Positions 3,170-3,392 of a stretch of DNA of 7,363 nucleotides are shown piece after piece. Numbering within the stretch: the stretch's first letter is position 1; every line of letters begins with the position of its first letter. Source of the stretch: a virus (taxonomy: Duplodnaviria; Heunggongvirae; Uroviricota; Caudoviricetes). The position numbers and the translations under genes were made by a program. The notes beneath the pieces were generated by a model. That model searched no databases. It saw nothing but the letters and a program-made list of their open reading frames with translations, and was not told the DNA's origin. Where the stretch lies: the IMG/VR virus record IMGVR_UViG_2529292836_000012, positions 1 to 7,363 of that record; one strand, written 5' to 3'.

Positions 3170-3211
3170 CCGGCAAATCTTCAATGGATTTCCCCTGCCG
3201 GTTTTTTATTT
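3170..3211 (+). terminator. plus-strand intrinsic terminator-like element (antisense to the late operon)
   Basis: Stem CCGGCA (3170-3175) pairs with TGCCGG (3196-3201), followed by TTTTTTATTTT. The loop is long (20 nt), so the call is weak. Confidence 0.3.
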
Positions 3212-3350
3212 TCGTCGATGCATAACATTGCATTTACATCAATAGCGGCTATTGTCATTAGTATGTTGCATCAATGCATGGGTGGTATTGGCGGTCTTCG
3301 CCGGCCGCTTCTGTGTAGCTGCTCCCTGTGACCGGTTTTTTATTTCTCAC

Positions 3351-3387
3351 ATTACAGCAACCCCTTAGAGTGAAGGGCTGCTGTAAT
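3351..3387 (-). other. strong RNA hairpin just 3' of the unknown ORF, without a U-tract
   Basis: ATTACAGCA(A)CCCCTT / AAGGG(C)TGCTGTAAT gives about 14 bp of pairing around a 6-nt loop, starting 6 nt after the stop codon. No T-run follows on the minus strand, so it is not a canonical intrinsic terminator. Confidence 0.5.
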
Positions 3388-3392
3388 GCCTG

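Follow-up and report, generated by a model that had tools for sequence, protein, structure and literature searches.

Positions 3030-3388 of a lambdoid prophage of the phiP27/cdtI kind may well form a self-contained non-coding module, made up of a unit A, an optional unit B and a conserved hairpin, hp2. In this proposal, to which we give about an even chance, a terminator-like hairpin at the end of unit A (hp1) would end an antisense transcript, short direct repeats would drive the loss of unit B, and the module would have no packaging role. The repeated sequence, the 14-mer CCGGTTTTTTATTT, closes both unit A and unit B, in each as the tail of a terminator-like hairpin, and the two hairpins flank 134 non-coding bases that about half of the related E. 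coli prophages lack. We read it above all as the junction of a common indel, which is phage mosaicism of an ordinary sort.

The module lies between the lysis region and cos

The window, by which we mean the whole stretch of DNA analysed (7,363 nucleotides), carries late genes on its minus strand (Table 1), and the module is flanked by the last ORF of the lysis region and by cos. In an identical locus, the ORF at 3836-3393 is annotated by RefSeq in a 130-aa version. Because the GenBank records of cdtI, Tritos and HannyBb start at window position 2996, and that of cdtI ends at 2997, the cohesive-end cut was placed at ~2996/2997. The region holding the 14-mer and the hairpins lies 175-395 bp to the right of this site.

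Table 1 Coordinates of the module and of the neighbouring late-region features in the window
Feature	Position	Strand	Remarks
DNA methylase	6968-5919	-	
Three tandem tRNA genes	5869-5623	-	Between methylase and holins; Arg, Arg, Ile per annotation of identical RefSeq locus
Holins and M15 endolysin	4773-4390	-	
Late-strand ORF of unknown function, phrog_1935	3836-3393	-	Stop codon 3393-3395
Non-coding gap	3392-2813		Between phrog_1935 ORF and small terminase
hp2, conserved hairpin	3350-3388	-	In late sense, 4 nt past the stop codon of the phrog_1935 ORF
Repeat copy 2	3332-3345	+	Tail of weak terminator-like element
Unit B, optional non-coding 134-bp segment	3212-3345	+	Ends in repeat copy 2; in about half of related prophages
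Repeat copy 1	3198-3211	+	Final 4 stem pairs of hp1 and U-tract (CCGG TTTTTTATTT)
hp1, interrupted hairpin	3169-3202	+	Stem-loop of intrinsic-terminator-like element (RNAfold)
Unit A body/segment before hp1, non-coding	3030-3168	+	Unit A in full ~3030-3211, ending in hp1 and U-tract
cosQ-like motif CACCGGAAGGACCCG	3012-3026		Beside cohesive end at ~2996, outside the 14-mer/hairpin region
Cohesive-end sequence GGGCGGGAGCGT (minus strand)	2985-2996	-	Left end of packaged genome
DUF1441 small terminase	2812-2273	-	
gpA-type large terminase	2264-216	-	Intact 682-aa ORF in the window

Several other features of the late region were recorded. A strong late-sense terminator-like hairpin at 4068-4093 (minus strand), with an 11-bp stem followed by TTTTTTATT, stands between the lysis genes and the ORF at 3836-3393, and an antiterminated polymerase would have to read through it. 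The T-tract of the 14-mer repeat, TTTTTTATTT, recurs directly after a hairpin and T-run at 5453-5468 (minus strand), within the holin ORF; the Chi octamer GCTGGTGG forms part of this hairpin and T-run. A 17-nt inverted repeat (15/17 complementary) pairs the start of unit A (3066-3082) with the inside of the ORF at 3836-3393 (3457-3473), at a chance level of ~0.05 by a rough estimate of our own for the window alone. In strain 120899, whose region right of cos is 100% identical to the window, ISCro1 (IS66 family) truncates the large terminase gene (locus L001, 1-3275); that prophage is therefore defective, unlike the window with its intact terminase ORF.

A terminator-like hairpin closes unit A

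hp1 has an outer stem of 7 bp (3169-3175 with 3196-3202) and an inner stem of 5 bp (3176-3180 with 3186-3190) around a 5-nt loop, the stem being broken by a 5-nt bulge. The fold of 3150-3215 has a free energy of -17 kcal/mol (z = -2.4). Directly after the stem, from 3202/3203, comes the U-tract TTTTTTATTTT (T6AT4), and because this tract follows the stem, the preliminary description was correct to see a terminator-like element on the plus strand here, antisense to the late operon. Taken together, hp1 and its U-tract read as a predicted Rho-independent terminator on the plus strand, pointing away from cos. A simple consensus terminator scan did not flag hp1, since its stem is interrupted, and a full-text literature search gave no match to the hp1 sequence.

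Among 139 related loci (33 haplotypes), the outer-stem columns 3170-3175 and 3196-3201 were invariant, and changes in hp1 fell mostly in the loop (TTCAATG, TTCCATG, TTTACTG, TCAATG). The U-tract was kept in all relatives, with one T-to-A change in the Stx2k phage. No bases of the module are better conserved than those of the stems and T-tract, while the flanking DNA varies: 32 of 43 columns are variable in 3033-3075 and 46 of 90 in the unit A body. Many of the ~139 loci were fetched with an hp1 pattern, so that the apparent conservation of hp1 is partly inflated. A substitution in the inner stem, A3177G, keeps a G-U pair on the plus strand and leaves a C-A mismatch on the minus strand.

Unit A travels as a whole

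The unit that hp1 closes consists of a variable 5′ part (3033-3075), in which TTRTCA (3042-3047) and ATGA (3066-3069) are conserved, followed by a body (3076-3168). Of the 5426 complete E. coli genomes scanned, 243 (~4.5%) carry unit A, always whole, and its left boundary, at ~3027-3033, is sharp beside differing neighbours. A pattern scan for unit A over one genome per species gave only chance matches, in unrelated taxa; at that sampling, breadth beyond E. coli prophages was not shown. We looked for covariation in the unit A body and found none.

In four IMG/VR contigs (L142, L150, L153 and L155), a ParB-like gene meets the module, complete with unit A, unit B and hp2, at ~3033. In strain E423 (L164, 1205-1360), the only strongly diverged unit A that was met, the body has departed from the window sequence far more than other parts of the locus have, and from ~3160 rightward the sequence is nearly identical to the window, which places a recombination joint just before hp1. 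As E423 is recombined at ~3160 and identical to the window beyond, it gives no independent look at hp1.

We propose that hp1 would terminate plus-strand transcription, and that the RNA ended there would most likely be a non-coding antisense transcript of ~130 nt made from unit A, a 'moron' of the sRNA-like sort. What favours such a transcript is that the ~140 bp upstream always travel with hp1 and keep a sharp left edge. In the window, a scan for sigma-70-like promoters on the plus strand upstream of hp1 gave no candidate. The sole conserved promoter candidate is TTRTCA-N17-nATGAy, with 6-8 of 12 matches, and its second hexamer in the window is GATGAC, with the key final T missing.

A pure insulator is the simplest rival to this transcript and, in our judgement, an unlikely one: hp1, and weakly copy 2, would stop stray antisense transcription across cos into lysis and accessory genes, and there would be no dedicated transcript. 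The clear terminator features of hp1, the lack of a detectable promoter upstream and a tandem arrangement that resembles back-up terminators would all fit. Yet insulation leaves unexplained why hp1 is accompanied in 243 genomes by ~140 bp of upstream DNA, the whole moving as one unit, and why the left boundary at ~3030 is sharp beside different neighbours, and no source of plus-strand transcription is known there. The preliminary description's two suggestions for this region, an antisense terminator or transcription block and a small RNA, are both plausible to judge from the sequence, the terminator idea for copy 1 only.

Unit B is an indel bounded by the 14-base repeat

The 14-bp direct repeat that had been described at 3198-3211 and 3332-3345 was borne out. 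CCGGTTTTTTATTT occurs exactly twice in the window, on the plus strand, and no further match was found there with up to 2 mismatches allowed; shuffled sequences gave 0.09 ± 0.28 matches and reached two in 0 of 200 cases. The homology of many E. coli matches stops exactly at 3211, the end of copy 1.

The two copies do not stand equal as terminators. A plus-strand terminator-like element is borne out at copy 1, with hp1, but the second 'terminator' is weak in the window, because the sequence upstream of copy 2 folds no better than shuffles (z = -0.24), into a stem of 4-5 bp with a large loop. Relatives with G rather than C at 3309, or with an 8-nt deletion, have a stem of 7-8 bp before copy 2.

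More than 130 related loci were fetched from IMG/VR and E. coli genomes, 137 of them with enough sequence for a copy count. Two copies of the repeat were present in 86, one in 51 and three in none, a mixed outcome for the refuting condition named in the preliminary description, that related prophages should lack the repeats: both copies are retained in 86 of 137, and a single copy in the other 51. Spacing between the copies in the 86 two-copy loci was 134 (58 loci), 131 (16), 126 (11) or 133 (1). In an alignment of the window with cdtI, phi458 and phiSTEC1575-Stx2k, the Stx2k phage had both copies; cdtI and phi458 had a single copy followed directly by hp2, and the DNA missing from them was exactly the intervening 134 bp. 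Two further loci, L005 and L006, likewise have no unit B. Among the 5426 complete E. coli genomes, 126 carry unit B, at 1-3 places each, tracking prophage number. It directly follows hp1 in 87 of 88 occurrences, the exception being a contig end. Both sequence subtypes of hp2 were found with and without unit B, so the polymorphism arose, or was reshuffled, more than once.

These sequence comparisons show unit B to be an indel with a short direct repeat at its limits. Acting on the 14-bp tails, replication slippage or short-homology recombination could remove unit B precisely and repeatedly. Recombination is stimulated beside cos and uses short homologies via phage Rad52-like recombinases (PMC3945230), and the short-direct-repeat deletions and mosaic joints of lambdoid phages resemble the present case in that one copy is left, in that the joints lie exactly at the repeat and in their place next to cos. 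They differ in that the repeats of the module are functional-looking terminator tails rather than arbitrary sequence.

It is extremely unlikely that unit B is instead a small MITE-like mobile element, inserted with a 14-bp target-site duplication, even though direct repeats do flank a segment that is present or absent. Unit B was met in no other context, with no copies seen at unrelated loci, which argues that it is not a mobile element. It occupies the same site in 87 of 88 occurrences, its 1-3 places per genome track prophage number, its ends show no terminal inverted repeats by eye, and it has diverged into several subtypes in place. A target-site duplication of 14 bp would also be unusually long.

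Unit B may be a decayed duplicate of unit A; on the proposal above it would be a second such unit, in decay. The pairwise local alignment of the two units was equalled by 9 of 2000 shuffles (p ~0.005), and a covariance model of unit A gave a weak full-length match on unit B (3215-3346, E = 0.047). Profiles run with nhmmer found no similarity between the units.

hp2 is best read as part of the late-sense RNA

The hairpin described earlier at 3351-3387 was recovered as hp2, at 3350-3388. Its arms are 14 nt long and 93% complementary, with z = -4.0 on the plus strand and -5.9 on the minus strand, and in each of 24 variants the minus-strand fold was the more stable. At five of the 14 pairs both partners have changed (for example, GATTACAGAAGCCC...GGGCTTCTGTAAC vs GATTATAGAAGTCC...GGACTTCTATAAC), and the covariation score of hp2 was 0.149 against 0.067 in shuffles (reached in 0 of 500). 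The covariance check across related loci that was put forward with the preliminary description was, then, positive for hp2 and negative for the unit A body.

hp2 does not qualify as a terminator on either strand, for a U-tract is absent on both: the sequence after it is CCTGTTACTCAC on the plus strand and TGAGAAATAAAAAA on the minus strand. In phiP27, hp2 lies between the late genes L33 and L34 with hp1 not nearby, and the late ORF beside L33 at hp2 is read as an HNH endonuclease. Given the missing U-tract, the greater stability on the minus strand and the intercistronic position in phiP27, hp2 is best read as belonging to the late-sense RNA, a late-mRNA hairpin just after the upstream stop codon and not a terminator. 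At loci where hp2 is not beside the phrog_1935 ORF, a separate bidirectional-looking terminator, AAAAAGGCCGCAGAGCGGCCTTTAT, follows (L005, 1775-1830), and there is also an unannotated small cysteine-rich minus-strand ORF.

One could extend this late-sense reading to the whole module. hp2 would then be a 3′ stabilizer of the upstream cistron, the A-rich linker AAAUAAAAAA between the hairpins an RNase E-type site, and the complement of hp1 a protector of the downstream packaging mRNA. For hp2 much speaks in favour, namely its position 4 nt past the stop codon, the better minus-strand fold in all 24 variants, the compensatory changes and the intercistronic site in the phiP27 late operon. For hp1 the signs point the other way: A3177G breaks the inner stem on the minus strand and not on the plus strand, and a hairpin followed by T6AT4 is a strong plus-strand signature. 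Unit B, moreover, is dispensable. As an account of the module, we find the extension rather improbable. We know of no established role for an A-tract before a hairpin.

Nothing in the module is under protein-coding constraint

That the region has no convincing ORF was confirmed. Local ORFs had no Pfam or PHROG matches, and pN/pS over six frames was 0.65-1.2 in unit A and 0.86-1.3 in unit B. Within unit A, relatives differ by frame-breaking indels of 1-2 nt. Nothing in the module is under protein-coding constraint.

Small protein genes on the plus strand are accordingly a very unlikely account, whether a 59-aa ORF from the ATG at 3066 and/or a 37-aa hydrophobic ORF at 3218-3331. The in-frame ATG at 3066 is kept in all 5′ variants, and PGAP annotates a 52-aa hypothetical protein (WP_157777103.1 in RefSeq) in strain RM11911 (L007, 1580-1738, about window 3066-3225, plus strand). 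This call, which spans unit A and the terminator of unit A, is probably spurious because relatives do not keep its frame: through +1 and +2 nt indels the unit A plus-strand ORF ends in three unrelated C-termini, in strain E423 it stops at codon 16, and pN/pS in this frame is 0.65. The ORF would also need to read through its own terminator, and Shine-Dalgarno sequences for the small ORFs are poor. The 37-aa ORF in unit B is hydrophobic in its N-terminal half and was considered as a type I toxin, but this was ruled out by premature stops or frame changes in four unit B variants, loss of the start in a fifth and a pN/pS of 0.86.

A role in packaging is not indicated

The suggestion that the structured region contributes to cos function in the manner of cosQ did not hold. 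A cosQ would be expected no more than a few tens of bp upstream of cosN, and its cognate terminase should need it. The window has a motif of its own at 3012-3026, CACCGGAAGGACCCG, which is like the cosQ of lambda and stands 150-370 bp from the 14-mer/hairpin region. This motif is invariant in the four-way alignment (window, cdtI, phi458 and phiSTEC1575-Stx2k), and nothing else to the right of cos is common to phages without the module; a related motif adjoins cos in DLP12. Tritos, whose terminase and cos-left DNA is 99.4% identical to the window, keeps CACCGGGAGGACCCG and diverges completely immediately right of GGACCCG, a sharp mosaic joint beyond which the module is entirely missing.

It is hardly conceivable, then, that the region serves as an accessory packaging site, an extended cosQ recognized by terminase or IHF at packaging termination. 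Closeness to cos would suit such a site, as would the TTATCA beside the cosQ-like motif, which is seen in DLP12 too. But Tritos, with its near-identical terminase and cos-left DNA, does without the module, and the module in turn is present in the four IMG/VR contigs without adjacent cos or terminase (in L142, region 2990-3400). Unit B is absent from cdtI and phi458, which were deposited as complete phage genomes, and the distance from the cut site, 175-395 bp, also speaks against it. We infer from these sequence comparisons that the module probably plays no part in packaging.

Resemblance to terminators, morons and prophage small RNAs

hp1 shares with Rho-independent terminators, such as those that close enterobacterial sRNAs and phage morons, a GC-rich stem-loop followed by UUUUUUAUUUU, a U-rich stretch (CUCUUUUG) before the hairpin, and strongly conserved stems with a variable loop. 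It departs from them in its interrupted stem (7 + 5 bp with the 5-nt bulge) and in that no promoter was found. The stem at copy 2 is poor in the window, and hp2 is without a U-tract.

In position, the module is like the bor moron of lambda and DLP12 and the ylcI moron of DLP12. In DLP12, the interval from the lysis genes to cos contains ylcI and borD, each running antisense to the late operon, so the slot accepts antisense cargo. The module occupies this slot between lysis cassette and cos, likewise antisense to the late operon, and is likewise small, with sharp edges, a terminator of its own and variable presence among related phages. Unlike these morons, it encodes no protein and has no recognizable promoter, and beyond cos it has no sequence similarity to the ylcI region of DLP12.

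The Hfq-dependent prophage sRNAs of pathogenic E. coli, PasB, AgvB/AsxR and Esr41, offer a second comparison. Like the module they are intergenic in a lambdoid late region and have a terminator with a long U-tail, and PasB, like unit A, is antisense between late genes (tail genes I and J). Sequence and position differ, and there was no Rfam match to those families: searches of the whole window and of 2990-3400 (411 nt, E up to 10) against Rfam 15 returned only the three tRNAs and chance-level matches. Unit A was considered as one of these sRNAs and the identifications were rejected, since PasB, located from a RIL-seq supplement, maps between tail genes I and J of E2348/69 PP6, and AgvB and AsxR lie 3′ of PR′.

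Tentatively, and as no more than one possible elaboration, unit A and perhaps unit B could be undescribed putative prophage sRNA genes, antisense to the late operon, lying right of cosQ and, for unit A, ending at hp1. Through Hfq, their transcripts might act in trans; alternatively they might act in cis, base-pairing with late mRNA from read-through and so keeping the packaging genes silent in the lysogen, while the repeated tail would let phages gain or lose units.

Implications

These comparisons remove a tempting but wrong reading of the region as cosQ and flag a probably spurious RefSeq 'hypothetical protein' over unit A. They also supply a clean natural example, in recombination-prone DNA near cos, of a presence/absence polymorphism whose junction is a short terminator tail. 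If hp1 does end an antisense transcript, ~4.5% of complete E. coli genomes (243 of 5426) would carry an unannotated non-coding gene beside cos, one more for the growing list of prophage sRNAs in pathogenic strains.
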